Notes: a model not told the origin generated them from the sequence alone. Positions 4,228-61,251 are shown, numbered from the stretch's first letter. The stretch: 64,000 nt of DNA from an uncultured Oscillospiraceae bacterium (GCA_947623745.1 CANQHN010000008.1:1387-65386), one strand, 5' to 3'. Made by a program: numbers and translations.

Positions 4228-4228
4228 T

Positions 4229-43959: not shown

Positions 43960-44085
43960 GAGGTCCGGCCCGGCGGGGAGTCCCGCCGGGCCGGCTTTTG
44001 TCAACACGCCCGGCACCCCGGTTGACGCCGGGGAGCGGATGGGCTATACTAAACACACACCTTAAAATTGAATGGAGGGATTGCC

Positions 44086-45078
44086 ATGAGCCGTGAAACG
44101 GTCCTCTCCCTGCTCCTGTCCCACCGGGACAGCTACCTGTCCGGCGAGGCCATGAGCCGCAGTCTGGGGATCAGCCGGGCCGCCGTGTGGAAGGCCATCG
44201 AGGCCCTCCGGCAGGAGGGCTATGTGATCCAGTCCGCCCCCAACCGGGGCTACCGCCTGGAGTCCGCCCCCGACCGGGTGCGGGAGGGGGAGCTGTCCGG
44301 CCACCTGGTCGGCTGCCTGGTGGGCAGCTCCCTGCTGTGCCTGGACACCATCGACTCCACCAACACCGAGTGCAAGCGCCGGGCCATGGCGGGCGCCCCC
44401 GAGGGGCTGGTGGTGCTCAGCGAGGAGCAGACCGGCGGCCGGGGCCGGCTGGGCCGGTCCTTCCAGTCCCCCAGGGGCTGCGGGCTGTACCTGTCCGCCC
44501 TGCTGCGCCCCCGGCTGGAGCCGGCCCAGGTGGTGGATTTTACCGCCTGGGCAGCGGTGGCGGTGTGCGACGGCATCGAGGCCGTCTGCGGCGTGCGCCC
44601 CCAAATCAAGTGGACCAACGACATCGTGCTGGGGGGCAGGAAGCTGGTGGGCATCCTCACCGAGCTGGGGCTGGAGAGCGAGACCAACTCCCTGCAGTAC
44701 CTGGTCACCGGCATCGGCATCAACGTCAACCACCGCCCGGAGGACTTTTCCGACGACGTGCGCCCTATGGCAACTTCGCTGGCCATGTACCTGGGGCACC
44801 CGGTGCGGCGGGCGGAGCTGGCCGCCGCCGTCATCCGGGCCCTGGACAGGATGTACGCCGGGTTCCCGGACAACCGGGCGGAGTACCTGGAGCGATACCG
44901 GGCCGGCTGCCTCACCCCCGGCCACCAGGTCCAGCTCATTACCCCCGCCTCCCGCCGGGAGGCCAGGGCGCTGGCCATCGACGACCAGTTCCGCCTGGTG
45001 GTGGAGTTTCCAGACGGCCACCAGGAGGCCCTGTCCGCCGGGGAGGTGTCCGTGCGGGGGATGTACGGCTACGTCTGA
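44086..45078 (+). CDS. birA: Biotin ligase/repressor BirA
   Basis: HTH SRAAVWK, QTGGRGRLGR, IKWTND, GIGINVN. Confidence 0.93.
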   Translation: MSRETVLSLLLSHRDSYLSGEAMSRSLGISRAAVWKAIEALRQEGYVIQSAPNRGYRLESAPDRVREGELSGHLVGCLVGSSLLCLDTIDSTNTECKRRAMAGAPEGLVVLSEEQTGGRGRLGRSFQSPRGCGLYLSALLRPRLEPAQVVDFTAWAAVAVCDGIEAVCGVRPQIKWTNDIVLGGRKLVGILTELGLESETNSLQYLVTGIGINVNHRPEDFSDDVRPMATSLAMYLGHPVRRAELAAAVIRALDRMYAGFPDNRAEYLERYRAGCLTPGHQVQLITPASRREARALAIDDQFRLVVEFPDGHQEALSAGEVSVRGMYGYV

Positions 45079-45096
45079 ACCCCAGGAAACTCCCAG

Positions 45097-45125
45097 GCAT
45101 ACCCCGAACCCCTGTCCCATAGAAT
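45097..45125 (+). promoter_or_regulatory. Sigma-E-type promoter of yabPQ
   Basis: GCATA-16-CATAGAAT. Confidence 0.55.
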
Positions 45126-45155
45126 GGTGGTACAAACTGGGAAAGGGGTGGGCGC

Positions 45156-45446
45156 ATGGCATACGAGGACGGAAAGCTGCGCTCGGAGGGGGCGCACCAC
45201 GTCATTCTGGAGGGGCGGGAGGAGCTGTCCGTCTCCGGGGTGGAGGAAGTGGAGAGCTTCGACGAGGAGACCATCGTCATGGTGACGGTGAAGGGGACCC
45301 TGGTGGTGCGTGGGGAGGACCTGCACATCGAGAAGCTGTCCCTGGACGGGGGCGACCTGCGGGTGGAGGGACTGGTGGAGTCCCTGACCTACGAGGATGA
45401 GGGCCAGGCGCGGGGCGGCTTCTTCGCCCGGCTGCTGCGGGGATGA
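45156..45446 (+). CDS. yabP: Sporulation protein YabP
   Basis: GVEEVESFDE...G.L.VRGEDLHIEKLSL. Confidence 0.9.
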   Translation: MAYEDGKLRSEGAHHVILEGREELSVSGVEEVESFDEETIVMVTVKGTLVVRGEDLHIEKLSLDGGDLRVEGLVESLTYEDEGQARGGFFARLLRG

Positions 45447-46144
45447 CCATCTCGGTGGAGCAGCAGTTCGCCGCCCTGGTCCAGGCCCTGTGCCTGGGAC
45501 TGGCGGTGGGTCTGCTGTACGACCTGCTGCGCATCCTGCGGGTGCGCCTGCGGCTGCCCCTGGTGGAGCCGGTGCTGGATCTGGCCTTCTGGATCGCGGT
45601 GACCGCCGGCCTGTTTGTCTGGTCCCAGGGGGCCTGGGGCGGGCGGGTCCGGCTGTACGGGGCCGCCTTTCTGTTCGCCGGCGGGTGCCTGTATTTCCTG
45701 TGGGTCAGCCGGTGGATGCTGAAGATCGGCTACCGGTTTGCCGATCTGGCGGAGCTGGTTTGGAAAATTTTTACATTTCCACTGGCCCTCCTAAAAAATT
45801 TATCGAAAAAAATACGAAAAAATGCAAAAAAACTCTTTCATTCCGGCGTGAAAAGGGTTAAAATAAACCAGATAACCAAGGAGCTGCAGGCCGCCCAGCG
45901 GCGGCGCGCGGAGCGGGAGACAGGAGGGAGCGCCCATGAAGTTCAAACGCGCGGGTCTGATCACCAAGATCGTGATTACGGTCCTGATGATTTACATGGC
46001 CATCTCCCTGCTGGATCTGCGCGCCCAGATCGACACGGTGCAGGGCGAAAGTCAGGCCCTGGCCGCCCAGATCGCCGAACAGCGGCAGGAGAACCAGCAG
46101 CTGGCCGAGGCCATCGAAAACAGCGACGACCCCGAGATGCTTGA
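45443..46144 (+). CDS. yabQ: Spore cortex protein YabQ (3' end overlaps divIC)
   Basis: GLLYDLLRILR, DLAFW, G.VRLY; located between yabP and divIC. Confidence 0.8.
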   Translation: MTISVEQQFAALVQALCLGLAVGLLYDLLRILRVRLRLPLVEPVLDLAFWIAVTAGLFVWSQGAWGGRVRLYGAAFLFAGGCLYFLWVSRWMLKIGYRFADLAELVWKIFTFPLALLKNLSKKIRKNAKKLFHSGVKRVKINQITKELQAAQRRRAERETGGSAHEVQTRGSDHQDRDYGPDDLHGHLPAGSARPDRHGAGRKSGPGRPDRRTAAGEPAAGRGHRKQRRPRDA

Positions 46145-46211
46145 GTCCGTGGCCCGCAGCAAGGGCTATGTCAAGCCGGGGGAGACGCTGTACATAGACG
46201 TGGCCAACTGA
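45936..46211 (+). CDS. divIC: Septum formation initiator (DivIC/FtsB family)
   Basis: TM, coiled coil, D.EMLESVARSKGYVKPGE. Confidence 0.82.
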   Translation: MKFKRAGLITKIVITVLMIYMAISLLDLRAQIDTVQGESQALAAQIAEQRQENQQLAEAIENSDDPEMLESVARSKGYVKPGETLYIDVAN

Positions 46212-46262
46212 TGCCCGCGGCCCCTGGGGGGAATTTTACAAGGGAGGAAATTTCGGTCAATT

Positions 46263-46727
46263 ATGGAGTTTGGTGTTGGGTCCATCCTGGAGGGGAAAGT
46301 CACTGGGATCACGAAGTTCGGGGCCTTTGTGTCCCTGCCGGAGGGGAGATCCGGCCTGGTACACATCTCGGAGATCGCCTATACCTATGTCAATGAGGTG
46401 TCCGAGTATCTCCACGAGGGCCAGGAGGTCAAGGTAAAGGTCATCGGGATCGACCAGAACAATCGGATCAACCTGTCCATCAAGAAGGTCACGGAGCCGC
46501 CTCCCCGTCCCGCCGGTGCGCCGCGCCCCAGGCAGGGGACCTCTGCGCCGCGGCCGGGCGCCGTGCCCCGCCAGGGCGGCTATGTGCCCCGCCCGGCTCA
46601 GCCGAAAGAGCCCACCGATTTCGAGGATAAGCTCAAGCAGTTCATGCAGTCCTCCGACAGCAAGCTGTCCGAGCTGCGCTACATAGAGAAGAAGGGCAGT
46701 AACCGCCGGGGCGGCAACCGCCGGTAA
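46263..46727 (+). CDS. S1 RNA-binding domain protein (YabR/YugI-like)
   Basis: GKVTGITKFGAFV...GLVHISEI...INLSIKK. Confidence 0.9.
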   Translation: MEFGVGSILEGKVTGITKFGAFVSLPEGRSGLVHISEIAYTYVNEVSEYLHEGQEVKVKVIGIDQNNRINLSIKKVTEPPPRPAGAPRPRQGTSAPRPGAVPRQGGYVPRPAQPKEPTDFEDKLKQFMQSSDSKLSELRYIEKKGSNRRGGNRR

Positions 46728-46782
46728 AGCGAGCGAAGGCCGCGCCGCGTAGACACGCGGCGCGGCCTTTTTCTCGGCGCGG

Positions 46783-46848
46783 AAAAAAAGAGCGCCCCGC
46801 GGCGGGGCGCATGAGGAGAAAGCGCATAGGAAGTTCTGGTGAGCTGCA
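46783..46848 (-). ncRNA. Candidate small RNA
   Basis: Minus-strand TTGACG-17-TAATCT promoter with TG extension, about 65 nt, ending in GCGCCCCG hairpin plus U run. Confidence 0.35.
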
Positions 46849-46919
46849 AAGATAGATTACCATAAAATTCCAATCGCGTCAATGGGAGCTTTTGTCGAAA
46901 GCCCCCGGAAAGGAAAACC

Positions 46920-48080
46920 ATGTTGATTCTTAACGGGACCGTCCACCCCATGGACGCCCCTGTCATTCCCCGGGGCTTTGTGGCGGTCTGCGGCGGGAAG
47001 ATCGCCCAGGTGGGCCCCATGGAGGACTGCCCCGCCGCCTGGGAGGGGGAGAGCTTCGACGCCCGGGGCGGGCACATCGTCCCCGGCTTTGTGGACGCCC
47101 ACTGCCACCTGGGGATGTTTGGGGACGCGCTGGGCTTTGAGGGGGACGACGGCAACGAGGCCACCGACCCCTGCACCCCCCACCTGCGGGCCATCGACGC
47201 GGTGAACCCCCAGGACCGATGCTTTCAGGAGGCCCGGCTGGGGGGCGTGACCACCGTGCTCACCGGGCCGGGCAGCGCCAACCCCATCAGCGGCCAGTTC
47301 GTGGCCATGAAAACCAGCGGCCGCTGGGTGGACGAGATGGTGCTCAAGGCCCCGGCCGCCATGAAGCTGGCCCTGGGGGAGAACCCCAAGGGGGTGTACA
47401 ACGAGCGCCACGAGACCCCGGTGACCCGCATGGCCACCGCGGCCATCATCCGGGAGAACCTGCGCAAGGCCCTGGAGTACGGTGAGCGGCTGGACAAGGC
47501 CGCCGCGGACGAGGAGGAGGACAAGCCTGACTACGACGCCAAGCTGGAGGCCCTGCTCCCCGTGGTGCGGGGGGAGCTGCCTGTCCACATCCACGCCCAC
47601 CGGGCCGACGACATCGCCACCGGGGTGCGCATCTGCAAGGAGTTCGGGCTGAAGTACGTCATCGTCCACGGCACTGAGGGGCACCTGATCGCCCCGCTGC
47701 TGGCCCGAGAGGGGGCGGCGGTGATCACCGGGCCCTGCCTGGGGGACCGCTCCAAGCCGGAGCTGGCCAATATGCGCATGGACGGCCCCTCCCTCCTATT
47801 CCGGGCGGGGGTGAAGATCGCCATCTGCACCGACCACCCGGAGACGCCGGTGCAGCACCTGCCCCTGTGCGCTGCTATGGCTGCCCGGGCGGGCCTGGAG
47901 CCGGAGCAGGCCCTGGCGGCGATCACCCGGTACCCCGCGGAGATTGCCGGGCTAGGGGACCGGCTGGGCACCCTGACGCCGGGGAAGGACGCCGACCTGG
48001 TGGTGACCACCGGCCACCCTTTGGATTGGACAAGCCGGGTGGCTTTGGTGTGCATCGACGGAAAAAAGATAGAGGGATGA
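46920..48080 (+). CDS. Amidohydrolase family protein
   Basis: PGFVDAHCH, KLALGENPK, HIHAHRADD, ICTDHP. Confidence 0.88.
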   Translation: MLILNGTVHPMDAPVIPRGFVAVCGGKIAQVGPMEDCPAAWEGESFDARGGHIVPGFVDAHCHLGMFGDALGFEGDDGNEATDPCTPHLRAIDAVNPQDRCFQEARLGGVTTVLTGPGSANPISGQFVAMKTSGRWVDEMVLKAPAAMKLALGENPKGVYNERHETPVTRMATAAIIRENLRKALEYGERLDKAAADEEEDKPDYDAKLEALLPVVRGELPVHIHAHRADDIATGVRICKEFGLKYVIVHGTEGHLIAPLLAREGAAVITGPCLGDRSKPELANMRMDGPSLLFRAGVKIAICTDHPETPVQHLPLCAAMAARAGLEPEQALAAITRYPAEIAGLGDRLGTLTPGKDADLVVTTGHPLDWTSRVALVCIDGKKIEG

Positions 48081-48202
48081 GCGCACTTTAGAAAAATTTC
48101 ACAAAACCCTATGGATTTTCCCGCAGAGTATGGTATAATAAGAGCACGAAGCGGGGCCTCCCGTTTCCAGAATCAGCCCCCGGGGCGAAAGGAGCGGAAA
48201 CT

Positions 48203-48754
48203 ATGAAATATGTGTTTACGGACAAGAAAGTGAACCTGCCCAATTTCATCCACAACTACGCGGAGAAAAAGGTGGGCAAGCTGGACCGTTTCTTTAGGGA
48301 GGATGCCACCGCCGCAATTACGTTCAGCGTGGAGAAGGACCGGCTCAACAAGGTGGAGATCACCATCCGGTCCAGCGGCACCATCTACCGGGTGTCCGAG
48401 AGCACCTCCGATATGCGCGCCTCGATCGACGCGGCGGTCTCCACCCTGGAGCGCCAGATTCGCCGGAACAAGACCCGCCTGGAGAAGCGCCTGCGCCAGG
48501 GCGCTTTCGAGCGCAGCGTGGACGCGGCGGAGGTCTCCTCCTTCGCCCCCGAGGAGCCGGAGGAGGGCGAGTACCGCCTGGTGCGCAGCAAGAAGTTCCC
48601 CATCAAACCGATGACTCGGGAGGAGGCCATCCTCCAGATGAACCTGCTGGAGCACAGCTTCTTCGCTTTCAAGGACGAGGAGTCCGACGGGGCCTTCGCC
48701 GTGGTCTACCGCCGCAACGACGGCGGCTACGGTCTGATCGAGGACGAGACTTGA
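48203..48754 (+). CDS. hpf: Ribosome hibernation promoting factor (long HPF)
   Basis: YAEKKVGKLDRFF, DMRASID, KPMTREEAILQMNLLEH.FF. Confidence 0.93.
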   Translation: MKYVFTDKKVNLPNFIHNYAEKKVGKLDRFFREDATAAITFSVEKDRLNKVEITIRSSGTIYRVSESTSDMRASIDAAVSTLERQIRRNKTRLEKRLRQGAFERSVDAAEVSSFAPEEPEEGEYRLVRSKKFPIKPMTREEAILQMNLLEHSFFAFKDEESDGAFAVVYRRNDGGYGLIEDET

Positions 48755-48767
48755 GCATAAAATTAAG

Positions 48768-48800
48768 ACAGGGCGCCCGCACAGCGGGCGCCCTGTTTTT
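48768..48800 (+). terminator. Rho-independent terminator
   Basis: ACAGGGCGCCCGC-ACA-GCGGGCGCCCTGT plus T run. Confidence 0.85.
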
Positions 48801-48984
48801 GGATTTGGCAAAAAAATCGGAGCGGCGGAATGAATGAGCTCTGACTTTTAAAAAAAGTCGGAGCGAACGATATGTAGTCCGCTCCGACTTGTGTTCCGTG
48901 GTCAGGTTGGAGAACGCATTTTGCTATATTCTGCCACTAAGTTGACTATGACACGGAAGCACCAATTTTGCGATTTTCTGATGT

Positions 48985-49051
48985 TTCAGTGGAACAGCCT
49001 GCCTGTTGAGAGTTTGCTAAATTTGCACGGATAATTTGAAAATGGGTGCAG
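48985..49051. repeat. 67-bp att-like direct repeat R1
   Basis: 53/67 ungapped identity by hand count to 50973-51039. Confidence 0.75.
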
Positions 49052-49064
49052 GACTCCATCTGTA

Positions 49065-49190
49065 TTAAATCTTCACGGTGATTACCTCGCCATTTGTAAG
49101 ATGAAACTCTGTTTGTCGGTTTTTTGTGGATGATCACTTCCTCCACCGGTTCATACCACAAAGCGTTAATCCGAGAAGTGGTGTGGGCCA
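49065..49190 (-). pseudogene. Remnant 3' end of a serine recombinase gene
   Basis: With one frameshift in an A6 run it reads ALWYEPVEEVIIHK/NRQTEFHLTNGEVITVKI*, resembling RWRETVESVTVYQDQRMVFHFKDGTEAEVHL* of the 52502 recombinase. Confidence 0.5.
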
Positions 49191-49192
49191 TT

Positions 49193-50689
49193 TTATTCAC
49201 GCGCTACGCAGCGAAGCTGATGGCCGTGCGAGCTTCCACTCCATTCATCGGGTATCGCTCTTCTTGTTCCACGTCCGAGTTCTATATCCAATGCGTTTGC
49301 TCCATAGCCATATGAATTCCAGTAAAATCCATAGTTCGCCCATGTCCACGCTCCATCTATTATTACAGCATTAGTATTAAATTGCGGCATGTTATTACTT
49401 CTATCCTCCACAAGTTGCGAAAAATCGTTGCTGTATGCTTCGGCAAGAGCAGTAAATTCTCCGTTTATAGGCAAGCTCCACCCTTTTGGACAGACGGATT
49501 CTTCAGCCGCGCCTTGCTCCGTAAGTTTCTCACTGCTTCCTGCAGTGGCAGCATTCCATGAATAATAAGCATTTCCTTCTTCGGAAATATAGAAATATGG
49601 GTCATGCCACGACGAGTGAAAAGTAAATGCACTTTGAGGTATTTCGAAGGCACAATCCTTAACATCTGAGTCAATTGGCGTCAATTTTCGATCGGTCAAT
49701 TTTTCATCGCCAAATCGCAGGTCTTGTGTCATCCAGCATTTGCCATCTTTCAGTTTTGCCACCGAATAAGTATTGCCGTCTCTCGCATCAACTAGGGTTG
49801 TGAAGCCACCATCCGACAATGAGCTACATTGGAAAGTTTGCATCCATCGTTGACTCCCCTCTGGCTTCCATACGCCGAGCAGTGTAGCTTCATTCTCTCC
49901 GTCGGCCAAAGGATACCCAGTCCCGGCTTTGTAGACAATATTATCTGCGCAAGCGCCGGTCTCAGCATTTTTCTTGCACCATCCTTGAAAAACATAGTTT
50001 GGTTTTTTCTGATTGGTGTTTAGTAACGTTACAGTAGGCTCAGTAGTTGTGCCTTGAGAAGTGTTATCTGTTGTACCACAGTTGCACCCGTCATATGAAA
50101 TGTTATAGTTTACTGTATTTGCTGTGGCAGTTATCGTAAAGGTATTAGAATAATTACCCGCGGGTTGGTTTGTATTCACTTTAGCACCAATAGTAAAGCT
50201 GTAATCATGATTACCACTTGCATTAGTCGTATCTAGCGTTTCCTTCGTTGTGGGTCCAGGTTGAAAATTATTATTGCTTATATTAGCATTATCTTTACCG
50301 AACTTGTAGCCCCAGGCATTATCTGGGAAGTTTGTTTTACTTTTCGCCTCAGTGATAGACGCTATAGTATTGCCTTCTTTGGAGGTTAATACGTTCTTAC
50401 TATTCTTAGACTGAATACTTAAGACATATCCCCAATGTGCATCGCCTTTTACGGATACTTTACCGCTAGCCTCAGAGAACCCACCGGACGCAGAAGCATT
50501 AACTGTGAGTGGATTGGTGGGGATTTCTATGGTGAGCGAGGCGGCGGAGACAGTCTGCGCCCCAAGCGCAGATAATGCAGCCATGACCACCACCCCCACT
50601 AAGCCCCATTTCTGTGCCAACGGGAGAAGTATTGAGCCGCTGGCACAGAGATGACGCTTAGTTTTGATACATTTGGGGATGATTTTCAT
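49193..50689 (-). CDS. Surface protein: N-terminal TM/signal, beta-rich domain, InlB B-repeat-like segment, FISUMP (Fib_succ_major-like) C-terminal domain
   Basis: LVDARDGNTYSVAKLKDGKCWMTQDLR, YYSWNAATAG, SVCPKGWSLP, LRCVA; NYVFQGW. Confidence 0.78.
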   Translation of the reverse strand: MKIIPKCIKTKRHLCASGSILLPLAQKWGLVGVVVMAALSALGAQTVSAASLTIEIPTNPLTVNASASGGFSEASGKVSVKGDAHWGYVLSIQSKNSKNVLTSKEGNTIASITEAKSKTNFPDNAWGYKFGKDNANISNNNFQPGPTTKETLDTTNASGNHDYSFTIGAKVNTNQPAGNYSNTFTITATANTVNYNISYDGCNCGTTDNTSQGTTTEPTVTLLNTNQKKPNYVFQGWCKKNAETGACADNIVYKAGTGYPLADGENEATLLGVWKPEGSQRWMQTFQCSSLSDGGFTTLVDARDGNTYSVAKLKDGKCWMTQDLRFGDEKLTDRKLTPIDSDVKDCAFEIPQSAFTFHSSWHDPYFYISEEGNAYYSWNAATAGSSEKLTEQGAAEESVCPKGWSLPINGEFTALAEAYSNDFSQLVEDRSNNMPQFNTNAVIIDGAWTWANYGFYWNSYGYGANALDIELGRGTRRAIPDEWSGSSHGHQLRCVARE

Positions 50690-50773
50690 GACCTACCTCG
50701 CTTAATATTGTTTGACGCAGGTCATTTCTGTTACTTTTTGCGCTGGTGGGGCTTTCGCCCCATTCACTATAAC

Positions 50774-50927
50774 AAAAATGGCACCGCAAGGGTGCATTAC
50801 TATATTATCTATCGATCAACTCGCCCAAAGGCATGCCGTAAATAGACAACCAGTACCTTGTGGTGCCATTTTTATTTATTTACGGCTATAAATGTGCTGA
50901 TCGTTAATATAAATAATATAGTAATGC
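50774..50927 (-). ncRNA. Candidate structured 5' leader RNA
   Basis: Three interleaved inverted repeats (19+8, 10, 18 bp); begins about 7 nt after TG-n-TATAAT (50934-50942). Confidence 0.5.
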
Positions 50928-50972
50928 TCTTTCATTATAGCACACATTTTTATTTGTGCGAAAAAAACGGCC

Positions 50973-51039
50973 TTCAGTGAGGCGGTCTGGCCGTTGAAGA
51001 TTTGCTAAATTTACATGGATAATTTGAAAATAGGTGTAG
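50973..51039. repeat. 67-bp att-like direct repeat R2
   Basis: TTTGCTAAATTT and GGATAATTTGAAAAT shared with R1. Confidence 0.75.
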
Positions 51040-51096
51040 TTTATACTGCTTCAATGAATGCTGAAACTAAGATCGCTGCGGTATTTTGCTGCATAG

Positions 51097-51128
51097 GAAA
51101 CTCCCCCGGAGAGAGTTGGGGGAGTTTC
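51097..51128 (-). terminator. Terminator-like hairpin after the cell-wall-anchored gene
   Basis: GAAACTCCCCC...GGGGGAGTTTC. Confidence 0.65.
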
Positions 51129-51171
51129 ACAATTTAACCTTTCTAACTCAGAGAGCTAGAAGCTCAGAGAG

Positions 51172-52287
51172 TTAGCGGTTGGATTTCTTGGCTACGAAAG
51201 CGGTAGCACCAAGGCCGAGCAGAGCTACGGTAGCAATTGTCAGGTAAGTGGCAATCGTATCAGCAGTGTTCGGGTTCTCAGCGTCGTCATCGGTTGGGTC
51301 TTCTGGCTCGTCGGTCGGGTCAACAACAGCATCGTCAATGGTGTTGTAGGCAGTCAAAGCCGCCAAATTAGCTTCGGTCGAAGTCTTGCCGTCAACAGAC
51401 CATTCAGCAAAGGTTACTTTGCCATTGTTGTTGTAAACATGCTTATCTTCGCCTTCGGTGGACAAATCAACGTTAGCGAGAACGAAGCTCTTCAGAGCAC
51501 CATACTTCTTTGCATCGTCTTTATTTTTTGGCGAGAGACCAAACACGGCTTTGTAGTCGAGAGGAGCGGTCACTTCTTTACCATCAACAGCGATAGTGTT
51601 ATTCTCTTCACTTGCAAGCGTGCTCTTAGAGACGTTCACGGTAATAGCATTGGCGGGAGCATCAGCAGACTCAATCAACAGAGCATTGCCAGTGCCGGCG
51701 TTAAGGGTAGCGCCTTTAGCAATAAAATCACCACCGGAAACCTTCACAGCATAGCCATCAGTGTCAATGAGACCGTTAACGGTAGTCTTACCGGCGCTCA
51801 TCCAAATACCATTGGCACCATTGATTTCACCATTAACCGTCACTTCGCCGTTGCTGTTGATTGCAAGTGCTTTGCCGCTATCAACAGTAACATTCTCACC
51901 GATAGTAACCGTTGCTTCGTCGCCAACAACCTTAATCGCATCGCCAGTTACATTAGCAAACGACACAAGAGCTTCACTATCGGAAACAATAGTAAGTTTA
52001 CCGTTGATAATCAACGAATGACCTTTGAATTTCAGTTCACCGCCGTTGAGGTCAAGGGTAACATCCTTATTGATGGTTACATCGCCAGAGGCGAATGTAT
52101 CATCATTCTCATTAAAATCGTCGGTAAGCTTGCAGGTCTTTGTTTCTTCTGTTGTCTGAAGACAACCGCGAAGTGTCTGGACTGCATCGTATTGCGTAGC
52201 TGCTTGTTCTTCTGGCGCAGCGAACACGCTTGGTACTATAGCCATACCAGCAATGAATGCCGCTACGGGAATAATAGATTTCTTCAT
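51172..52287 (-). CDS. Secreted beta-helix-like protein with LPXTG-like anchor (NPNTAD)
   Basis: Signal peptide ending VFA; acidic DPTDEPED linker; NPNTAD, TM helix, KKSNR tail. Confidence 0.78.
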   Translation of the reverse strand: MKKSIIPVAAFIAGMAIVPSVFAAPEEQAATQYDAVQTLRGCLQTTEETKTCKLTDDFNENDDTFASGDVTINKDVTLDLNGGELKFKGHSLIINGKLTIVSDSEALVSFANVTGDAIKVVGDEATVTIGENVTVDSGKALAINSNGEVTVNGEINGANGIWMSAGKTTVNGLIDTDGYAVKVSGGDFIAKGATLNAGTGNALLIESADAPANAITVNVSKSTLASEENNTIAVDGKEVTAPLDYKAVFGLSPKNKDDAKKYGALKSFVLANVDLSTEGEDKHVYNNNGKVTFAEWSVDGKTSTEANLAALTAYNTIDDAVVDPTDEPEDPTDDDAENPNTADTIATYLTIATVALLGLGATAFVAKKSNR

Positions 52288-52326
52288 TCATTCTCCTTCA
52301 TGAAGATTATTTGATATTACACATTA

Positions 52327-52379
52327 ATTTTATCAAATTGATATATTATTGTCAATAGCTTTTTGTGCATATTGCACAA
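52327..52379 (-). promoter_or_regulatory. Sigma-70 promoter with upstream palindrome
   Basis: TTGACA-17-TAAAAT (52355-52327); TTGTGCA-N3-TGCACAA at 52363-52379. Confidence 0.65.
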
Positions 52380-52501
52380 TTTTGTCTGCGTTAGGGATTG
52401 TCATATTGGAATAGGGCTTTGCGGTACTTACATTGTGAAAAAGCGCCGCAAAATTGCGACGCTTTGAAAATAAAGTACAGAATGTGCTGGCTCAAATGGT
52501 G

Positions 52502-53782
52502 CTACAGATGAACCTCTGCCTCTGTACCATCTTTGAAGTGAAATACCATCCGCTGGTCTTGGTATACCGTAACGGACTCCACCGTTTCCCGCCAACGCTG
52601 GTCACTGTAGGAACAGTCGGAATCACCGATTATCTTGCGGGCAGCTTCAAATGCGGCCTGTATCTCATGCTCACGCAGAATCGGCGTGGCGCATTTATCG
52701 GTTTTTCCATACCTGTGGTTACAGTACCATACGGTATAGCGATCTGTGTTCCCCCGGTTGTGCCAGACCTTGCTGCCATAGAAGCTTCCGCAGTCTCCGC
52801 AGACGAGTTTTGCGCTAAAGGGATAATCATCCCGGAGCCGCGCAGCATATGGCTTGCGTAAGGCGATCATCTCCTGTACACGCTCGAAAGTTTCCGGGTC
52901 GATGATCGGTTCGTGAGAATTGCGCACGATATACTGTTTCATTTCCCCCCGGTTTTTCCGAACCTTCTTCGAGAGGTAGTCTACCGTATAGGTCTTCTGG
53001 AGGATAGCCTCTCCCTTATATTTCTCATTGGTGAGAATGTTCTCCACGGTAGAGGTGGGCCAAATTGTCCGCCCTTTGGGTGTAGGGATACCGCGCACCG
53101 TCAGAGACTTTGCGATGTGGCGGACCGTCATGCCTGAAAGGAACATATCGTAAATCTCACGCACAATTTTCGCTTCTTCCTCTACGATTTCCGGTCTGCC
53201 ATCCGGCCCTTTCCTGTAGCCGAGGAAAGCAGAGTAAGCAATGTGGACTTTGCCATCCTTCATGCTTTTTTGCTGTCCCCAGCGGACGTTTTCGCTGATA
53301 GAGCGGCTTTCCTCCTGCGCCAATGAGCTCATGATGGTAAGCATCACCTCGCATTTGGGATCGAAGGTGCGGAGGTTTTCTTTCTCGAAAATCACCTCCA
53401 CGCCTGCCTCCTTTAGCTGGCGGACAGTTGAGAGCGTGTCCACCGTGTTCCGGGCAAACCGGGAAATGGATTTTGTCAGGATCAGATCGATCCCGCCACT
53501 TAAGGCAAGGTTGATCATCTGATTGAATCCATCACGGTTTTTGGTATTGGTACCAGTGATCCCGGCATCGGAAAACACGCCAATGAACTCCCAGAGAGGA
53601 TTGCCCTTAATGTACTCGGTGTAATATTGCACTTGCGCTTCATAGCTGTTTTGTTGCTCATCCTGCTCGGTAGAGACACGGGCGTAAGCCGCTACGCGAA
53701 GCCTTTGCGTGACAGGGGAATCAGACCGCTCAACAATCTGTTTGATCGGCTCAATTTCCTCTACTTCTGGCGTATAATTCAC
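52502..53782 (-). CDS. Large serine recombinase 1
   Basis: VAAYARVST, TKSISRFARN, Zn ribbon CGDCGS; GTG start at 53782 in GTGA overlap with AAGGAG RBS. Confidence 0.92.
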   Translation of the reverse strand: MNYTPEVEEIEPIKQIVERSDSPVTQRLRVAAYARVSTEQDEQQNSYEAQVQYYTEYIKGNPLWEFIGVFSDAGITGTNTKNRDGFNQMINLALSGGIDLILTKSISRFARNTVDTLSTVRQLKEAGVEVIFEKENLRTFDPKCEVMLTIMSSLAQEESRSISENVRWGQQKSMKDGKVHIAYSAFLGYRKGPDGRPEIVEEEAKIVREIYDMFLSGMTVRHIAKSLTVRGIPTPKGRTIWPTSTVENILTNEKYKGEAILQKTYTVDYLSKKVRKNRGEMKQYIVRNSHEPIIDPETFERVQEMIALRKPYAARLRDDYPFSAKLVCGDCGSFYGSKVWHNRGNTDRYTVWYCNHRYGKTDKCATPILREHEIQAAFEAARKIIGDSDCSYSDQRWRETVESVTVYQDQRMVFHFKDGTEAEVHL

Positions 53783-55095
53783 TTTAACTCCTTCCGGTGT
53801 TGTTCCAGTGCCTTTTCCCGTGCGGCCTGCCGCATCTCCGGGGTCCAGCTTTCCCGCCTTGAATGGTGTTGCCATATAACGTCAACCTCCTTTCCGTTTT
53901 TTAGATAGTAGACAAGATGATAATGCTCTGGAACTACGATTTTCCAAATACTGGCTTCTACGGTTTCCCAATCCAGATGTTCTGTACCAAGGGTTTCCGC
54001 CGTTTTTTCGATCAGAATCTTCTCGGGGATATTCTGTGCAGGGCATACCTGTTTACCCAGCTTGTTATAACTGGGGCAAACCCATATGTTCCTTTTGCCG
54101 TTCTGTCCACTTGTTTTGCAACGCTGATAGATCCGTCCGCAAAGGCCGCAATGAATCAGCCCCCGAAACAGAGACTGTCCCACCTCATTATTCTGCGTGG
54201 GCTTGTAGTATTGTGATTGGCGTCTTTTCATCTCATTTTGTACTGCATCGAACACCTCCTGTTCAATAATCGGCTCGTGGCTATGCCAAACACGGTACAT
54301 TTTCACCTCCCCATGATTTTCTTTTGTCTTTTTGGTGCGAAAATCTGTACGATAGGTTTTTTGGAGGATCATGTTGCCGGTATAGTCTTCGTTGGTCAGA
54401 ATATGTCGAACCGACGAGATATTCCAAGGCCTTCCCAATTGCGTGGGAACTCCGCGCAACGACAGTTCTTTGGCAATGTGGGTCAATCCGTGACCAGAAA
54501 GGTACTCTGCATAAATCCAGCGTACAATTTCTGCTTCCTCCGGTATAACAGATAATCTGCCATTTTCCAGGTGGTATCCTAACATCCGTCCCACCCACGG
54601 TTCACCTTTCTTGAACTTCTTCTGTATCCGCCATTTCTGGTTTTCACTGGCGGATCTGGCTTCTTCCTCTGCATACATGGCGAGAAGCGTAAGGAGAAGC
54701 TCACCATCCGGGCTGATAGAGTGCATCTGCTCTTTCTCAAAGTAGCAGTCGATGCCGAGGTCTTTCAGTTCCCGAATCGTTTGCAGTAGGATGACCGTAT
54801 TCCGGGCAAACCGGGTGACGGACTTCGTGATCACGAGGTCGATTTTCCCGGCGCGGCAATCTACCAGCATCCGTTGGAACTCCGGACGGTTGATGATCGT
54901 GCCGGAGATCCCGTTGTCTGAATAGATGTTTACCAGTTGCCAATCAGGATGCTTTGCGACATACTTTTCATAATAGTCTATTTGGGCTTCCAGTGAATGA
55001 AAGGCCGCATCCTTATCTGCCGAGACGCGGGCATAAGCCGCGACACGGGTGATCTTACGTTCCTTTGATTTTGCAGGTATCTCAGTGATTTCCAT
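53779..55095 (-). CDS. Large serine recombinase 2
   Basis: VAAYARVS, TKSVTRFARN, IHCGLCG. Confidence 0.92.
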   Translation of the reverse strand: MEITEIPAKSKERKITRVAAYARVSADKDAAFHSLEAQIDYYEKYVAKHPDWQLVNIYSDNGISGTIINRPEFQRMLVDCRAGKIDLVITKSVTRFARNTVILLQTIRELKDLGIDCYFEKEQMHSISPDGELLLTLLAMYAEEEARSASENQKWRIQKKFKKGEPWVGRMLGYHLENGRLSVIPEEAEIVRWIYAEYLSGHGLTHIAKELSLRGVPTQLGRPWNISSVRHILTNEDYTGNMILQKTYRTDFRTKKTKENHGEVKMYRVWHSHEPIIEQEVFDAVQNEMKRRQSQYYKPTQNNEVGQSLFRGLIHCGLCGRIYQRCKTSGQNGKRNIWVCPSYNKLGKQVCPAQNIPEKILIEKTAETLGTEHLDWETVEASIWKIVVPEHYHLVYYLKNGKEVDVIWQHHSRRESWTPEMRQAAREKALEQHRKELK

Positions 55096-55142
55096 GGTTT
55101 ACCCCTCCTTCGTACCATACATCACTCTGTTGAGCAGGAAAG

Positions 55143-55439
55143 TCAACGATGTTTTTCGATGACTCTTCGGTTGTTTTTCCACCACTCTATTCGGCATTCA
55201 TCCGAACAAAACTGGCGGATTCTGCAATCTGTATCCGGTAGGATACGGTGACAATTTCTGCAAAGCTGAACGCTATGTTTCTCAGCTTTGGTTTTGCGCT
55301 TGCCAGAAGCAGGGAATCCCTTTCTCCGGCAAACCGATTTTACGGTGTTGGACGGCAAACCCAGCGCCCGCCCAATAAAGCTGTACGGATAGTTGAGAGC
55401 CCGCAGCTCTGCGATCCGCTCTAGTTGCTGTGCCGTCAT
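55143..55439 (-). CDS. Small HTH plus Zn-ribbon protein upstream of the recombinases
   Basis: IGRALGLPSNTVKSVCRR, CRNC...FCSDECR. Confidence 0.7.
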   Translation of the reverse strand: MTAQQLERIAELRALNYPYSFIGRALGLPSNTVKSVCRRKGFPASGKRKTKAEKHSVQLCRNCHRILPDTDCRIRQFCSDECRIEWWKNNRRVIEKHR

Positions 55440-55447
55440 AACGATGG

Positions 55448-55496
55448 CCTCCTTTCTTTGGTTGATTTAATATTATTTGGTACCCCTTGCGGGGCA
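55448..55496 (-). repeat. Hairpin-plus-RBS leader motif, copy a
   Basis: TGCCCCG-N3/4-GGGGT(A/G)CCA...AATC..AAA.GAA.GGAGG. Confidence 0.65.
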
Positions 55497-55551
55497 TGTC
55501 ATCCCCAGCTCTATGAGAGCTGGGGAGAGTGGTAAAGTGCGTAATGTGCGG

Positions 55552-55785
55552 TTACTTGTCCGTGATTTTACGGACACGATCCTCGCCGTAGGCTATACCG
55601 AGGCCGGAGCCGTAGTCCCAGCGGACGAAAATCGTGCCGATATCGTCCACTGCCGAAACTGTGCCCCGATCCCCGGGCTTCAGCCTGGAATATGGATCGT
55701 TCATGGAGATGAGCTCCACGCGGGTCCCTTGCGGGTACTCCTTCCGCAGACGCTCTACGGTTTCACGGCTGGGAAACTGGTTCAT
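55552..55785 (-). CDS. DUF4314-like protein
   Basis: YPQGTRVELISMNDPY..L.PGDRGTV..VDDIGTIFVRWD.GS.LG. Confidence 0.75.
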   Translation of the reverse strand: MNQFPSRETVERLRKEYPQGTRVELISMNDPYSRLKPGDRGTVSAVDDIGTIFVRWDYGSGLGIAYGEDRVRKITDK

Positions 55786-56108
55786 TCCGAATCCTCCTTT
55801 CCGTCTGGAACAGCGATCTCAGCGATGGGGAAAACGTCATAATTGCCGTTATCGCCCAGCGCCGCTAAGATCTCCCGTTGCTTGGACTCTGTAAGGTCGT
55901 CCCAAAAGATTTGGATTGCCTGCCCGTCTGCCGGGGCAATTTCCTCGGCAACAGCCTGGACACCATCTTGGATATATCCACCGTCCAGTTCAACCTCGCC
56001 ACCCATATAGCGGCAGATGGCTTCGTCCATTGCCTCAACATCCGACTCTGCCTCGATCTCTACCGTGGCAGTGAGCAGTTTGGACAGGGTAACTTTGAAT
56101 TTTTTCAT
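55782..56108 (-). CDS. Hypothetical protein (DpnD/PcfM-like N-terminus)
   Basis: MKKFKVTLSKLLTATVEIEAESDVEA; GGAGG RBS. Confidence 0.55.
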   Translation of the reverse strand: MKKFKVTLSKLLTATVEIEAESDVEAMDEAICRYMGGEVELDGGYIQDGVQAVAEEIAPADGQAIQIFWDDLTESKQREILAALGDNGNYDVFPIAEIAVPDGKEDSE

Positions 56109-56109
56109 C

Positions 56110-57246
56110 TCAGTCCTCCTGTACCGGAGTCTCATCCGGGGTATCGGCATCGGATTCCGCAGGAGCCTCCGATACTGTGTCAGCGGGTTCCTCATCGGGA
56201 ACTGTGGTTGTTTCTTCGTCCGGGGCATCTGCCGTCTCCTCAACGGGAGTGGGATCAGCCTCATCGCCAGAATTGTCCGGCGTTTCCGTATCGGGGGCCG
56301 TCTGCTGGGTGGCAGAGGCAGCCTCCTCGCTGGCAGGTTCCTCCGGCTTCGGCTGTTTCTTCGGCGGAGCGCCAAAGCGCCAGCCGCTGTTGCCAGTAAG
56401 ATCCTGCATCATGAGTTTCCGGGCCAGCGCGAACTGCGCCCCTTTCATACCCATCCGCACCATGAAGATGCGCATGGCAAAACGGTCATTGTCGCCGTCA
56501 TAGGGCTTGTCCAGAATGCGCGTTTGCTCTTTGGCCATCTGGCAGAGCGCCGTGATGAACTGGCCATAGGCAGCCGCCTCGCCGGTCACACCCTTAACAG
56601 GGAACCACGGGAAAGAGATTTTCTCCTCCGTAGCCTCGATGGGCAGTGCCTCGGCAGAGAGCGCCCGCTTAAACAGAACTTCCTTGTTGGCGACGATCTG
56701 CCGCAGTCGCTCCAGCGCACTGTCCGTGAGGAAGCTGCGCGGGATGCTGATAGTGAGATGCGTATCGTCCGCCTCAGAGGAAGCCGTGAGTCCCCCATCT
56801 TCCTTGGCCGGGGCATCAGATACCGGCGTGTTGCCAGTATCCTTTGCTTCGACGGGCTGGGGAGCGGGTTCCTCCGCCGCTTCAGGGCTTTCCGCGCCCA
56901 CGGTGGGCGTTTTGGCCTCGCCTGCGGGTTGGTTATCGGGTTTGGCCTCCGGCGCGATGTCGGCGGTTTCTGCGCCCACGGTGGGGGCATTCTCCTCCGG
57001 GGCCGGGGCATCGTCCACAGCATACGGCGTGAAGCCGCGCTCAGACAGGCCCGAGAGAATCTGCCCGGTAAGGGTCGGGTTGTTCTCGGACCAGCTAATC
57101 ATACCGTTCTTGTCCACGGTGCAGACACCTACGGTATAGCCGTAGGTTGGGGCCCGCATATAAACGGGCTTCTCCTGCAGAACTTCTCCAAGGGCTTGTA
57201 CCAGGCGCTTACGATCTTCGCCGGTCAGGTTGTAACGAATCGTCAT
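56110..57246 (-). CDS. Conserved ICE/prophage protein often labelled virulence-related, with acidic low-complexity inserts
   Basis: MTIRYNLTGEDRKRLV, NDRFAMRIFMVRMGMKG. Confidence 0.7.
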   Translation of the reverse strand: MTIRYNLTGEDRKRLVQALGEVLQEKPVYMRAPTYGYTVGVCTVDKNGMISWSENNPTLTGQILSGLSERGFTPYAVDDAPAPEENAPTVGAETADIAPEAKPDNQPAGEAKTPTVGAESPEAAEEPAPQPVEAKDTGNTPVSDAPAKEDGGLTASSEADDTHLTISIPRSFLTDSALERLRQIVANKEVLFKRALSAEALPIEATEEKISFPWFPVKGVTGEAAAYGQFITALCQMAKEQTRILDKPYDGDNDRFAMRIFMVRMGMKGAQFALARKLMMQDLTGNSGWRFGAPPKKQPKPEEPASEEAASATQQTAPDTETPDNSGDEADPTPVEETADAPDEETTTVPDEEPADTVSEAPAESDADTPDETPVQED

Positions 57247-57291
57247 GTTGTTTACCTCCAATCTAAATTTGTTGACTTTGATTACAGTGGC

Positions 57292-57636
57292 TTATTCGAC
57301 TTCCAGCACGTTTTCCGCATCTACGAAGAAGACGCGCTCCTGTTTAAAGCTCTGCCGCCAGGTCTCCTGCTTGGGGAGACTGGCGGCAAAGCGGAGCAGG
57401 GCTTTTAAGATGCTCTGCTGAAACGGTGTGTGTGGCTTCCTCTCCCAGCCGCGCTCATACGCGAACAGTTCAAGGGAGCTGTTTTTGTCGTTTACATACA
57501 GCTTGATGACGCGCCCGTGCCTGATCCCAAAGCCGGACTTTTTGTCACAGACCTTGATGCCAAACGGGAAATCATCTATGGTGCCGGTGAGCTAGATACC
57601 GTCTCTTGCGGTAGCTTTGATAAAATGCTCAGCCAT
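57292..57636 (-). pseudogene. Small hypothetical gene with in-frame TAG at codon 15
   Basis: GGAGG RBS, ATG 57636, TAG at 57592-57594, frame then open to TAA 57292; similar start to the neighbouring gene. Confidence 0.65.
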
Positions 57637-57649
57637 ATGGTTTCACCTC

Positions 57650-58015
57650 CTACCTCAAAGAATCCATCCAGTCCGTTGACTCGTCGTCGATATCCCCGGC
57701 AAACAGATGAAGCTTGTTTTGAGGTTCCCACCATTCCGCCGGGTTGGGGATAGTGGCGGCAAGGGCCAACAGGGAGTTCAAAATGCGTTTCTCTTCTCCG
57801 GTCAGATACCGGCTCCCAAAGCAGTGCTGAAGAAGCTCCATCCCGTCCAGGCCCAGCCTGCGGTCCCGGAAAAGCTCGAACAAGCGACCTCCTCCGACAC
57901 CGATCTCCGGGTATAAGTCATCTTCCCATATCCGGATGGCAAACGGACGCAGGCCAATCTTCCCAGACAGCCAGAAGCCATCGTTGGTGACGGCAATCAC
58001 AGGTTGTTTTGCCAT
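57650..58015 (-). CDS. Hypothetical protein
   Basis: GAGGTGG RBS; DGFWLSGKIG resembles the start of the adjacent pseudogene. Confidence 0.6.
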   Translation of the reverse strand: MAKQPVIAVTNDGFWLSGKIGLRPFAIRIWEDDLYPEIGVGGGRLFELFRDRRLGLDGMELLQHCFGSRYLTGEEKRILNSLLALAATIPNPAEWWEPQNKLHLFAGDIDDESTDWMDSLR

Positions 58016-58023
58016 AGTCCACC

Positions 58024-58203
58024 TCAGCTTTCCTCGCCGGTCATGATGAAGTGCCAATACTCCTTGGAGTGTTCCTCCAGATAGATGACCAGTTCGTAGT
58101 AGCCTTCACGGTTGGCGATGTACTGTACCATACGGGTGTCGAGCATGTTGGTTTCACCGCTGTCGCGGATCGCCATGATCTGTTCTCTGATTTTCTCAGT
58201 CAT
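58024..58203 (-). CDS. DUF5049-like protein
   Basis: Manual translation MTEKIREQIMAIRDSGETNMLDTRMVQYIANREGYYELVIYLEEHSKEYWHFIMTGEES. Confidence 0.75.
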   Translation of the reverse strand: MTEKIREQIMAIRDSGETNMLDTRMVQYIANREGYYELVIYLEEHSKEYWHFIMTGEES

Positions 58204-58217
58204 TTTCGTATCCTCCT

Positions 58218-59231: not shown

Positions 59232-59283
59232 GTTAAAGTGCGTGTTTTAACCTGTTGCCCGGACAGGTTGAATTTAGGGCTGT

Positions 59284-59329
59284 CCTCCTTTCGTTTGGAT
59301 TGATATTTCTGGTACCCCTGAACGGGGCA
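59284..59329 (-). repeat. Hairpin-plus-RBS leader motif, copy b
   Basis: Near-identical to 60047-60091. Confidence 0.7.
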
Positions 59330-59387
59330 TATGTTTCCTGGGGTATCCCCGGCCCGGTGAGGGCCGGAGATATGTAAGGTGCGGGGA

Positions 59388-59801
59388 TCATCCTCTGCGG
59401 ACAATCTCACCCTCCGGCGTTCTGCTAAAAGCAATACTGCCGAATTCCGAGCAGTCCGGATACTGGTAGTTGACGGTGTAGGTCAGGGCGTAGCCAGCTT
59501 TCAGATCTTCGTGCTCCATTGGCCATTCTTCTTCATACTGGCTGACATAGAACAGAGAGTCCATAACGCAGAATCCGAGATCAGCGCGAACCACCAGAAA
59601 GACCAGGGCATCATGCTCCCGCTCGAAGCGGCGGATCATAGCCATGTCCTTAGCTGTGAGCTCCGGCAGCGTCCCATCTCCCGCAGAGAGATGAATTTTG
59701 CCGTCCTGCTCAAAGTCCCGGATATACTCCTCCCGAAGCCCCATCAGGCGCATCCGGCATAGAGCCTCCTCCTTTTTGCGTTCCATCAGATTATTGTTCA
59801 T
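59388..59801 (-). CDS. Hypothetical protein
   Basis: AAAGGAGA RBS, overlaps the upstream gene. Confidence 0.65.
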   Translation of the reverse strand: MNNNLMERKKEEALCRMRLMGLREEYIRDFEQDGKIHLSAGDGTLPELTAKDMAMIRRFEREHDALVFLVVRADLGFCVMDSLFYVSQYEEEWPMEHEDLKAGYALTYTVNYQYPDCSEFGSIAFSRTPEGEIVRRG

Positions 59802-60036: not shown

Positions 60037-60046
60037 TAGCGGTAAG

Positions 60047-60091
60047 CCTCCCTTCGTTTAGATTGATATTTCTGGCACCCCATACGGGGCA
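60047..60091 (-). repeat. Hairpin-plus-RBS leader motif, copy c
   Basis: Near-identical to 59284-59329. Confidence 0.7.
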
Positions 60092-60183
60092 AGTTGGTTG
60101 TTTTGAGGGGGCGGCGTATGTAAACGGAACCGCCGTCTACATACGCTGGGCCATCAGAGACCTCACATATCCTGTCCCTCCAT

Positions 60184-61236: not shown

Positions 61237-61251
61237 AGTAGTTCTCCTTGT

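Follow-up and report, generated by a model that had tools for sequence, protein, structure and literature searches.

What are two AT-rich genes for surface proteins doing between the chromosome of a gut bacterium and the recombinase genes of a mobile element? The question is raised by a stretch of 64,000 nt from an uncultured Oscillospiraceae bacterium (GCA_947623745.1 CANQHN010000008.1:1387-65386), called here the window and always meant at its full length, in which a block at 49193-52287 carries two genes, named A and B, both on the minus strand. A preliminary description, made from the sequence alone, took both for cargo with Saccharibacteria-like architecture that a mobile element may have shuttled between an ultra-small episymbiont and Clostridia. 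The reading that we favor, with somewhat better than even confidence, is that the block is the accessory adhesin module at the tip of an integrative conjugative element (ICE) carried by gut Clostridia, that it forms a hypervariable cassette, and that its A family is anciently linked to the Saccharibacteria. The window's DNA is present in rabbit gut metagenomes, and the relatives of A and B were all drawn from ENA, Logan or NCBI assemblies (rabbit and other gut). Related loci are designated L, related proteins P, and metagenome runs matched to the window X.

The window falls into three layers of composition, namely host DNA (GC 0.62-0.72), the AT-rich block at 48.8-52.5 kb, and the mobile-element backbone from ~52.5 kb to the window end. 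GC goes from 0.56-0.72 over 44000-48999 to 0.40-0.47 across 48750-52500 and then to about 0.48-0.61 in the backbone, and GC at third codon positions (GC3), which spans 0.83-0.94 for host genes and 0.55-0.72 for those of the backbone, is down to 0.405 for A and 0.446 for B. Together with the annotated flanks, these drops bear out an AT-richer block of different codon usage between the host hpf gene and the recombinase pair, as had been noticed beforehand. The two open reading frames (ORFs) were likewise recovered where they had been placed (49193-50689, 498 aa; 51172-52287, 371 aa), and domain models and ORF ends agree with a transmembrane (TM)/repeat/FISUMP protein and a secreted protein with an NPNTAD-TM-KK tail.

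Beyond the block lies an integrative conjugative, or at least mobilizable, element, as indicated by its relaxase, coupling protein, DUF4314 protein and DpnD/PcfM-like protein. The integration module, relaxase and coupling protein are found on one contiguous element with a mapped end; the ICE extends past the window end (64000) and only part of its backbone is seen. In a three-way alignment, identity to two sister elements ends at ~48889 (...CCTGACCACGGAACACA) and the sequence beyond is unrelated; A and B therefore take up ~3.4 kb at the tip of the ICE, bounded by the recombinase genes on one side and by the terminus of the element on the other. The genes for YabP, YabQ, DivIC, an S1-domain protein and BirA sit directly upstream in the host DNA and thereby assign the host to the endospore-forming Bacillota of high GC; the carrier is a spore-forming Clostridium of the rabbit gut. 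Next to the sister ICE L092 lies an exonuclease III that belongs to a 90% cluster bearing the name Candidatus Eisenbergiella, and the sister L001 lies in a 353-kb contig of ~50% GC. Since these contexts differ, the ICE family moves among different Clostridia. The 70 nt outside the end (48819-48888) are a terminator-like hairpin with a T7 run, oriented for minus-strand transcripts. The same 70-nt module was also found in unrelated contexts in runs X1 and X5, and in X5 the sequence past 48888 resembles the T-arm of a tRNA, so that the element may be inserted elsewhere in that run.

Comparison of the sister ICEs revealed the nature of the block. The order recombinase-recombinase-B-A is kept in L001-L003 and becomes recombinase-recombinase-(insertion sequence, IS)-A in L092, where a transposase-like ORF takes the place of B within an otherwise syntenic ICE. 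The recombinases are 98-99% identical and the backbone DNA 95% (52218-60091), against 51% for A and 37% for B. Three blocks of DNA are conserved relative to the sister, one at 52218-60091 that includes the signal-peptide codons of B, one at 50091-51281 (88%) that covers the tail of B, the intergenic region and the first ~200 codons of A, and one at 48889-49213 (88%). Between them, the center of B (51282-52217) and the Flg_new and FISUMP part of A (49214-50090) are unalignable to the sister in DNA. An alignment of 23 B sequences shows no variation in the signal peptide or the 35-residue tail where these exist, and 29-39% identity in the centers; P0111 and P0113 are without the signal peptide and P0114 without the tail, and 22 of the 23 keep one or both ends invariant. 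The leader of A is 77-90% identical in most ICE-type alleles and 33-66% in the four or five most divergent, and its Ig-like domain occurs in types (83-85% or 33-45% identical). Domains of A can also be discordant, as in P0010 and P0011, which share 93% identity in the Ig domain and 39% in FISUMP. Four metagenomes show a 2-3 fold increase in sequencing depth at the conserved leader, a signal at the population level. Conserved ends and unalignable centers on near-identical backbones thus make A and B a modular, hypervariable cassette, in which the B center and the Flg_new and FISUMP part of A are swapped wholesale between otherwise near-identical ICEs. The notion of a one-off cargo pick-up gives way to that of a standing module of the ICE family. 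The modules may have been replaced through homologous recombination at the conserved flanks.

A 67-nt direct repeat, whose two copies are 79% identical (Table 1), lies 130-140 nt past the stop codon of A and of B and is kept at both positions in L001-L003. An Rfam scan of this repeat returned no family, and an integron-like reading of a repeat after each gene was dropped, as there is neither attC-like symmetry nor an IntI. Judged by eye from the sequence, transposase-like ORFs stand directly upstream of A-like genes at L087 5316-6659, L091 400-1689 and L092 5286-6647. These divergent ORFs, of 429-453 aa, had been considered as an inverted B, which was rejected for their IS-transposase look, by eye, and the lack of blastp similarity to B. 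In run X5 a contig joins 51279 to 52232, so that the variable center of B is gone (952 nt, out of frame); both ends of this deletion lie only some bases away from the breakpoints of the mosaic (51281/51282 and 52217/52218), and it may be a null allele or an artefact of the assembly graph.

Such a sharp break in composition, and contig breaks at the conserved leader and the intergenic repeats, could speak for a Saccharibacteria fragment mis-joined to a Clostridia contig, and a check of coverage had been proposed to exclude a chimeric contig. In X1, the best-matching run, one unitig (record 4) matches 47713-50627 with 0 mismatches and thereby links hpf and other host genes, across the ICE end, to the variable part of A, and a second one runs from 50898 to beyond 54500 and keeps the intergenic region, B and the recombinases together. 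Word depth in X1 is uniform at ~8 throughout. The ~270 nt between the two unitigs are a conserved multi-copy sequence, with 2-3 fold higher depth in each of the four runs. Three further samples, which lack the host flank, contain these A and B alleles at matching depth, and the independent assemblies L001-L003 and L092 have the same gene organization. These data refute a mis-join, and we regard a chimera as extremely improbable.

Concerning protein A, a long basic n-region is followed by a TM segment or signal anchor (cleavage-like between VSA and AS), a pilin-like Ig domain (~50-190), Flg_new (~193-276) and a FISUMP C-type-lectin-like domain (~296-498). The AlphaFold2 (AF2) model, with a mean pLDDT of 74, has a disordered leader and a TM segment, an Ig-like beta-sandwich, the Flg_new repeat and the FISUMP domain. 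TIGR02145 places A in the FISUMP family of NCBIfam (46.6 bits, cut-off 41.65); Pfam PF09603 reaches only 22.3 bits vs a cut-off of 33.9, and most homologs carry precomputed PF09603 hits. Flg_new (Listeria-Bacteroides repeat) scores just below the Pfam cut-off of 27 (25.7 bits, E-value 1.3e-5). Residues C288, C318 and C494 are invariant and C400 nearly so in 18 homologs, which, with the N-terminal signal-anchor, fits a secreted, disulfide-bonded FISUMP protein. The best local Foldseek matches of the Ig-like domain are chaperone-usher pilin domains (e.g., 2wmp_B, TMt 0.54, prob 0.95), and weak matches to NF058581 (CPR_Pam_pilin_C) and DUF4402 were also obtained. This likeness to the Pam pilus pilins of the Candidate Phyla Radiation (CPR; bioRxiv 10.64898/2026.03.03.709456) does not make A a Pam pilin, a candidate that was rejected: NF058581 scores 17.4 bits vs a cut-off of 55, there is no pam operon context with the chaperones PamC/D nearby, the neighbors being the recombinases and B, and nothing points to donor-strand exchange. 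The closest relatives of A (35-55% identity) form a Bacillota mobile-element group with its own leader and Ig-domain types. Protein patterns from the A leader had no match in JGI metagenome contigs.

Protein B starts with a signal peptide (MKKSIIPVAAFIAGMAIVPSVFA) and continues with an ectodomain in the form of a right-handed beta-helix and with an acidic linker, up to a tail of NPNTAD, a TM segment and KKSNR, ending in ...ENPNTADTIATYLTIATVALLGLGATAFVAKKSNR. Its AF2 model (pTM 0.70, pLDDT >90 over ~130-200) has the strand pattern of a beta-helix. The three-part sorting-signal architecture of the tail is invariant in 22 alleles, its only model match is a weak one to EF0750_LPXTG, and similar tails (NPSTYD-, PSTGD- and PPKTSD-, each followed by a TM segment and a basic end) occur in its weak relatives P0122, P0123 and P0137. 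We take NPNTAD to resemble the NPxTx/LPNTA motifs. Because the tail has the architecture of a sortase sorting signal, B is probably attached to the cell wall. A profile search with B gave only weak surface-protein matches, some with SLH, dockerin or Flg_new domains and none source-named.

A second layer of conservation resides in the coding region of A. Codons ~10-31 (TKRHLCASGSILLPLAQKWGLV) are near-invariant among proteins otherwise 35% identical, and they lie on an inverted repeat with 26-nt arms, 25 bp paired, and a 13-nt loop (CUCAAUACUUCUC). The RNA fold of this region has z = -7.3 in the window and its outer, extended helix takes in the start codon; an upstream anti-Shine-Dalgarno segment is predicted to pair with the Shine-Dalgarno (SD) sequence in the relatives L001, L004, L005 and L084. 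Across 11 loci (the window, L001, L004, L005, L084, L085, L087 and L089-L092), 96.4% of pair cells are paired and 6/25 pairs have changed on both sides, values that were reached by 0/500 shuffles (slid controls 35-42%). For instance, Cys->Ser (UGU->AGU) always comes with Gln->Leu (CAG->CUG). The "conserved leader peptide" of A is thus dictated by a covarying nucleic-acid hairpin, and this hairpin, together with the helices that sequester the start codon or SD sequence, may exert post-transcriptional control over A (translation or stability). Rfam held no family for the hairpin, nor did its DNA pattern match JGI metagenome contigs or IMG/VR viral contigs. A covariance model built from the alignment gave weak hits in two Saccharibacteria loci (L011 6103-6194 and L078 4326-4408; 33.5 and 28.2 bits), one of them within the signal-peptide n-region of a 597-aa ORF and the other just upstream of an A-like ORF; the latter has GGCACCATTTTAGT/ACTAAAATGGCGCC and the loop CTCAATA in common with the hairpin. 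As separate observations, a long helix (AAAUGGCACCAUGAGGG...CCCUCGUGGUGCCAUUUU) enclosing 40-60 nt stands 60-150 nt upstream of Saccharibacteria A-like ORFs in L012, L015, L020, L038 and L065 (one metagenome-assembled genome, MAG) and in L058, and strong 5' structures precede 44% of Saccharibacteria A-like paralogs vs 21% of control ORFs (p = 0.035). No Rfam family was found for these upstream helices.

Some relatives of A are targets of diversity-generating retroelements (DGRs). In L085/L086 and L090 the A-like gene is followed by an accessory ORF of 277-280 aa and a reverse transcriptase (RT), and its last ~200 nt differ from an inverted template repeat (TR) only at TR adenines (18/18 in L085, 14/14 in L090), which makes this a canonical DGR; in both loci the TR is on the strand opposite the RT gene. 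Bacillota-type DGR loci are L085 4721-8591, L086, L090 894-4906 and probably L087 7001-10126, and the targets include P0019, P0020 and probably P0009, close relatives of A. L085 belongs to a chromosome segment of Bacillota type (large signal recognition particle RNA-dnaX-ybaB and a tRNA). Gut Saccharibacteria MAGs also have DGRs beside A-like FISUMP paralogs (L007 9243-14362, L049 9030-12473, L063 837-4507), with RTs 48-51% identical to that of L085, homologous accessory ORFs and the same inverted TR; mismatches between the variable repeat (VR) and the TR fall at template adenines in 24/27, 13/13 and 24/24 cases. The window's A is not such a target, as opposed to the genes of L085, L090, L007, L049 and L063: its 3' end matches only itself in the 64-kb window and has no nucleotide similarity to the TRs of the relatives, and no RT or DGR accessory gene was noticed in the annotated parts of the window. 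Its diversity therefore stems from allele replacement and not from current retro-mutagenesis. FISUMP/DUF1566 heads are a recognized class of DGR targets (CLec2), and the DGR of Legionella is located within an ICE (PMC5758913). Like A, the L. pneumophila LdtA class (CLec2, DUF1566-Fib_succ_major) of that report has a surface C-type-lectin-like head with a variable C-terminal face on a mobile element; the variation of the window's A differs in spanning the whole ~880-nt Flg_new and FISUMP segment and not the VR alone.

The relationship of A to the Saccharibacteria was studied by scanning 185,579 species, each represented by a single genome, with patterns taken from the alignment of A, of which CWM[TVI][DQE]NL disfavors the Bacteroidota-type motif CWMAENL. 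Among the best 80 loci, two Clostridia/Oscillospiraceae MAGs and one 'Bacillota' contig come first and ~77 belong to gut/rumen Candidatus Saccharibacteria/Nanosyncoccus. Many of these matches span residues ~30-497 of A (Ig-like, Flg_new and FISUMP), and some genomes have at least 12 paralogs. The motifs DARDGNTY..AKLKDGKCWMTQ, which had been pointed out in A, are indeed there and recur in proteins named Candidatus Saccharibacteria. These paralogs, annotated as hypothetical proteins, share with A an Ig-like domain whose end reads ...QPAG.Y.NT.T.TA.AN, a Flg_new repeat that may be absent, and a FISUMP domain marked by D.RD...Y..AKL.DGKCWM and a C-terminal ...RC.., and some are the DGR targets described above. 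They differ in having mostly ordinary signal peptides instead of the KRHLCASGSILLPLAQKW leader, with hairpin-model hits limited to the two weak ones, and in being chromosomal and multi-copy, not ICE cargo, with no B-like partner. The window's FISUMP head scores 109-114 bits (35-41%) against Saccharibacteria paralogs and 101-121 bits against other ICE-type alleles; in the domain-wise comparison, the Ig-like domain is a clear peculiarity of the element-borne group. In a whole-protein neighbor-joining tree the element-borne sequences stand between two Saccharibacteria groups with a bootstrap of 4-7% for monophyly, so the tree gives no direction of exchange. The A family and its DGR may well share ancestry with the expanded adhesin paralogs of gut/rumen Saccharibacteria through an old inter-phylum exchange of either direction.

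Did the ICE, then, recently take both adhesin genes from a Saccharibacteria episymbiont, and is it now shuttling them into Clostridia? The architecture of A, its FISUMP head and the homologous DGR in both groups would fit, and so would composition, as the GC/GC3 of the cassette (0.45/0.41) resembles the mean of Saccharibacteria A-like genes (0.44/0.39) and neither host nor backbone. The other Bacillota loci with the family are just as low in GC (0.43-0.50), however, and composition, while it sets the block apart from host and backbone, does not discriminate a Saccharibacteria from a Bacillota origin. The identity of A to any Saccharibacteria locus is at most 44% and over segments only, its best full-length hits are element-borne in Bacillota, with leader and Ig types of their own, and not inside the Saccharibacteria, where they would have supported the preliminary description, and the cassette comes in different alleles in every sister ICE. 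For B there is no Saccharibacteria relative: neither homologs nor NPxTAD-type tails turned up in ~1 Mb of Saccharibacteria loci (1421 ORFs). With such identities and bootstrap values a recent shuttle is excluded for A, and a recent uptake of both genes is accordingly highly unlikely; what survives of the proposed Saccharibacteria-like architecture and shuttling is an old kinship, for A only. It is also conceivable, and in our view still unlikely, that gut Saccharibacteria and Clostridial mobile elements share a pool of adhesin modules (the FISUMP head, its DGR, even the 5' hairpin), because these episymbionts would live attached to Clostridia.

Returning to the ICE-borne cassette, its domains, anchoring signals, DGR association and pattern of variation point to glycan or cell-surface binding, for mating contact or for niche adhesion. 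A would be exported via its signal-anchor and would show the FISUMP ligand-binding head on a stalk of Flg_new and the pilin-like Ig domain, and B would act as a beta-helix surface protein held to the cell wall by its sorting-signal-like tail. Together they would decide which targets the carrier cell adheres to, glycans on surfaces being the likeliest, with their centers exchanged by recombination at the conserved flanks and the expression of A tuned by the hairpin. Adhesion to recipient cells (mating-pair formation, transfer range) and adhesion to gut substrates are about equally likely. In a stricter form, A and B would be a dedicated pair of conjugation adhesins that bind glycans of the recipient surface, their alleles setting the transfer range of the ICE. 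The module does lie inside the ICE and is retained across sister ICEs, a specificity determinant would be expected to show just such hypervariable alleles on a near-identical backbone, the hosts of this ICE family include a high-GC spore-former and a Lachnospiraceae-like bacterium, and Gram-positive conjugation relies on surface adhesins (PrgA preprint). Yet L092 retains A and has lost B, the module is at the recombinase end and away from the block of relaxase and type IV coupling protein, no homology to known mating adhesins was found, and A-like genes occur with no conjugation genes nearby; we therefore treat this form as a possibility well short of probable. Niche-adaptation cargo, that is, adhesins for mucus, plant fiber and other gut surfaces whose variation comes from diet or host glycans or from immune or phage pressure, is likewise a tentative reading. 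FISUMP/DUF1566 relatives are surface proteins, and Lcl is reported to bind glycosaminoglycans; DGR targeting implies changing ligands, and the A family is also present in non-conjugative islands. Nothing speaks directly against this reading, but alone it does not explain the retention at the same position in every sister ICE.

Known systems offer partial parallels. The adhesin of pLS20 is reportedly a thioester-domain surface protein acting in conjugation. PrgB/PrgA of pCF10 and the pLS20 adhesin are element-encoded, wall-anchored or surface proteins that promote or limit contact between cells, to which the sorting-signal architecture of B compares, but there is no sequence or fold homology and the A-B module is not beside transfer genes. 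TraN variants of conjugative plasmids pair with outer-membrane proteins of the recipient; like the cassette, they are divergent surface-protein alleles on near-identical backbones, an analogy only, as envelope type, protein families and mechanism are different. Paired large serine recombinases move SCCmec (CcrAB) and clostridial Tn families. The window's element resembles these in its two adjacent large serine recombinases at one end and its insertion just downstream of a conserved housekeeping gene, and differs by also carrying a relaxase and a coupling protein.

Several points weigh against a wall-anchored, hairpin-controlled adhesin cassette of the ICE. The linkage of this A to this B crosses ~270 nt of conserved multi-copy sequence, and is based on equal depth and co-occurrence in four samples, with no single unitig; the proposed recombination at the flanks is drawn from mosaic identity. 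The Foldseek matches of B, namely AlgE4, PL6 lyases (polysaccharide lyases/epimerases), phage tailspikes and the L. reuteri SRRP adhesin, are non-significant (all E-values at least 0.25). To our knowledge NPNTAD is no characterized sorting motif, and neither a TLxTC sortase signature in ORF segments of at least 150 aa nor a sortase gene was seen in the window. The hairpin could act at the level of DNA rather than RNA, and no RNA-seq runs holding the region were found. Furthermore, genes like A are not confined to ICEs (they are also present in DGR islands at a tRNA and beside IS elements), and A is therefore not a dedicated component of conjugation.

Table 1. Features of the cassette, its host flank and the part of the ICE seen in the window.
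Feature	Position	Strand	Evidence and remarks
Host hpf (ribosome hibernation factor)	48203-48754	+	Ribosomal_S30AE and C-terminal domain (Pfam); GC3 0.89; final host gene ahead of the element
Left ICE end with junction zone	48819-48891		Three-way alignment of window, L001 and L092; blastn end points; inverted repeat I5; loose ends 48888/48889 in four runs
Conserved 3' flank of A	48889-49192	-	86-88% nt identity to L001 and L092; holds repeat copy 1 (48985-49051)
Gene A, 498 aa	49193-50689	-	Pfam/NCBIfam, AF2, Foldseek
Hypervariable segment of A (Flg_new and FISUMP)	49214-50090	-	No detectable nt similarity to sister ICE; 26-40% identical to all other alleles at the aa level
Conserved 5' part of A (leader and Ig-like domain)	50091-50689	-	Within 88% nt block common to L001
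Conserved hairpin inside A	50598-50662	-	Inverted repeat I1; RNA fold; covariation
B-A intergenic region	50690-51171	-	96% identical to L001; holds repeat copy 2 (50973-51039) and several small inverted repeats
Gene B, 371 aa	51172-52287	-	23-allele alignment, AF2, Foldseek
Hypervariable center of B	51282-52217	-	No nt similarity to sister ICE; 29-39% aa identity among alleles; two alleles with unrelated center
Pair of large serine recombinases (457 and 438 aa)	52502-53875, 53779-55095	-	Resolvase, Recombinase and Zn_ribbon_recom; 98-99% identical to L001-L003
ICE backbone seen in the window	55143-63396	-	Pfam: DUF4314, DpnD/PcfM-like protein, further ORFs, relaxase, coupling protein; 95% nt identity to L001 over 52218-60091
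Replic_Relax relaxase	60184-61236	-	Pfam
Type IV coupling protein	61252-63396	-	Pfam

Two further regions were noted in the course of the annotation. In L001, past the homology end (12069-14143), very AT-rich ApeA-NTD/HEPN-ApeA genes (GC 0.32-0.35) and TnpV form a defense-type island adjoining the cassette. In the window itself a second block of low GC (0.43-0.50) in the high-GC host, at 1-8000, encodes a LysR regulator, an HpcH/HpaI aldolase, a TRAP transporter (DctPQM), an MBL-fold hydrolase and an Fe-alcohol dehydrogenase, and is probably an acquired metabolic island.

Adhesins borne by ICEs and lectin heads diversified by DGRs are already known. Less expected is a two-gene surface module that behaves as a replaceable cassette on ICEs otherwise 95-99% identical, and the hairpin in A adds an uncatalogued cis-element. 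Should adhesin modules indeed be pooled between gut Saccharibacteria and Clostridial elements, the cassette would be a captured adhesin for attachment to hosts, or else a decoy or counter-measure against that adhesin, and would point to the hosts of gut Saccharibacteria. Less expected, too, is that the A family and its DGR are shared almost solely with gut/rumen Saccharibacteria, which is tangible evidence for a flow of genes between CPR episymbionts and mobile elements of Bacillota, and the cassette is a tractable candidate determinant of adhesion or transfer specificity in gut Clostridia.

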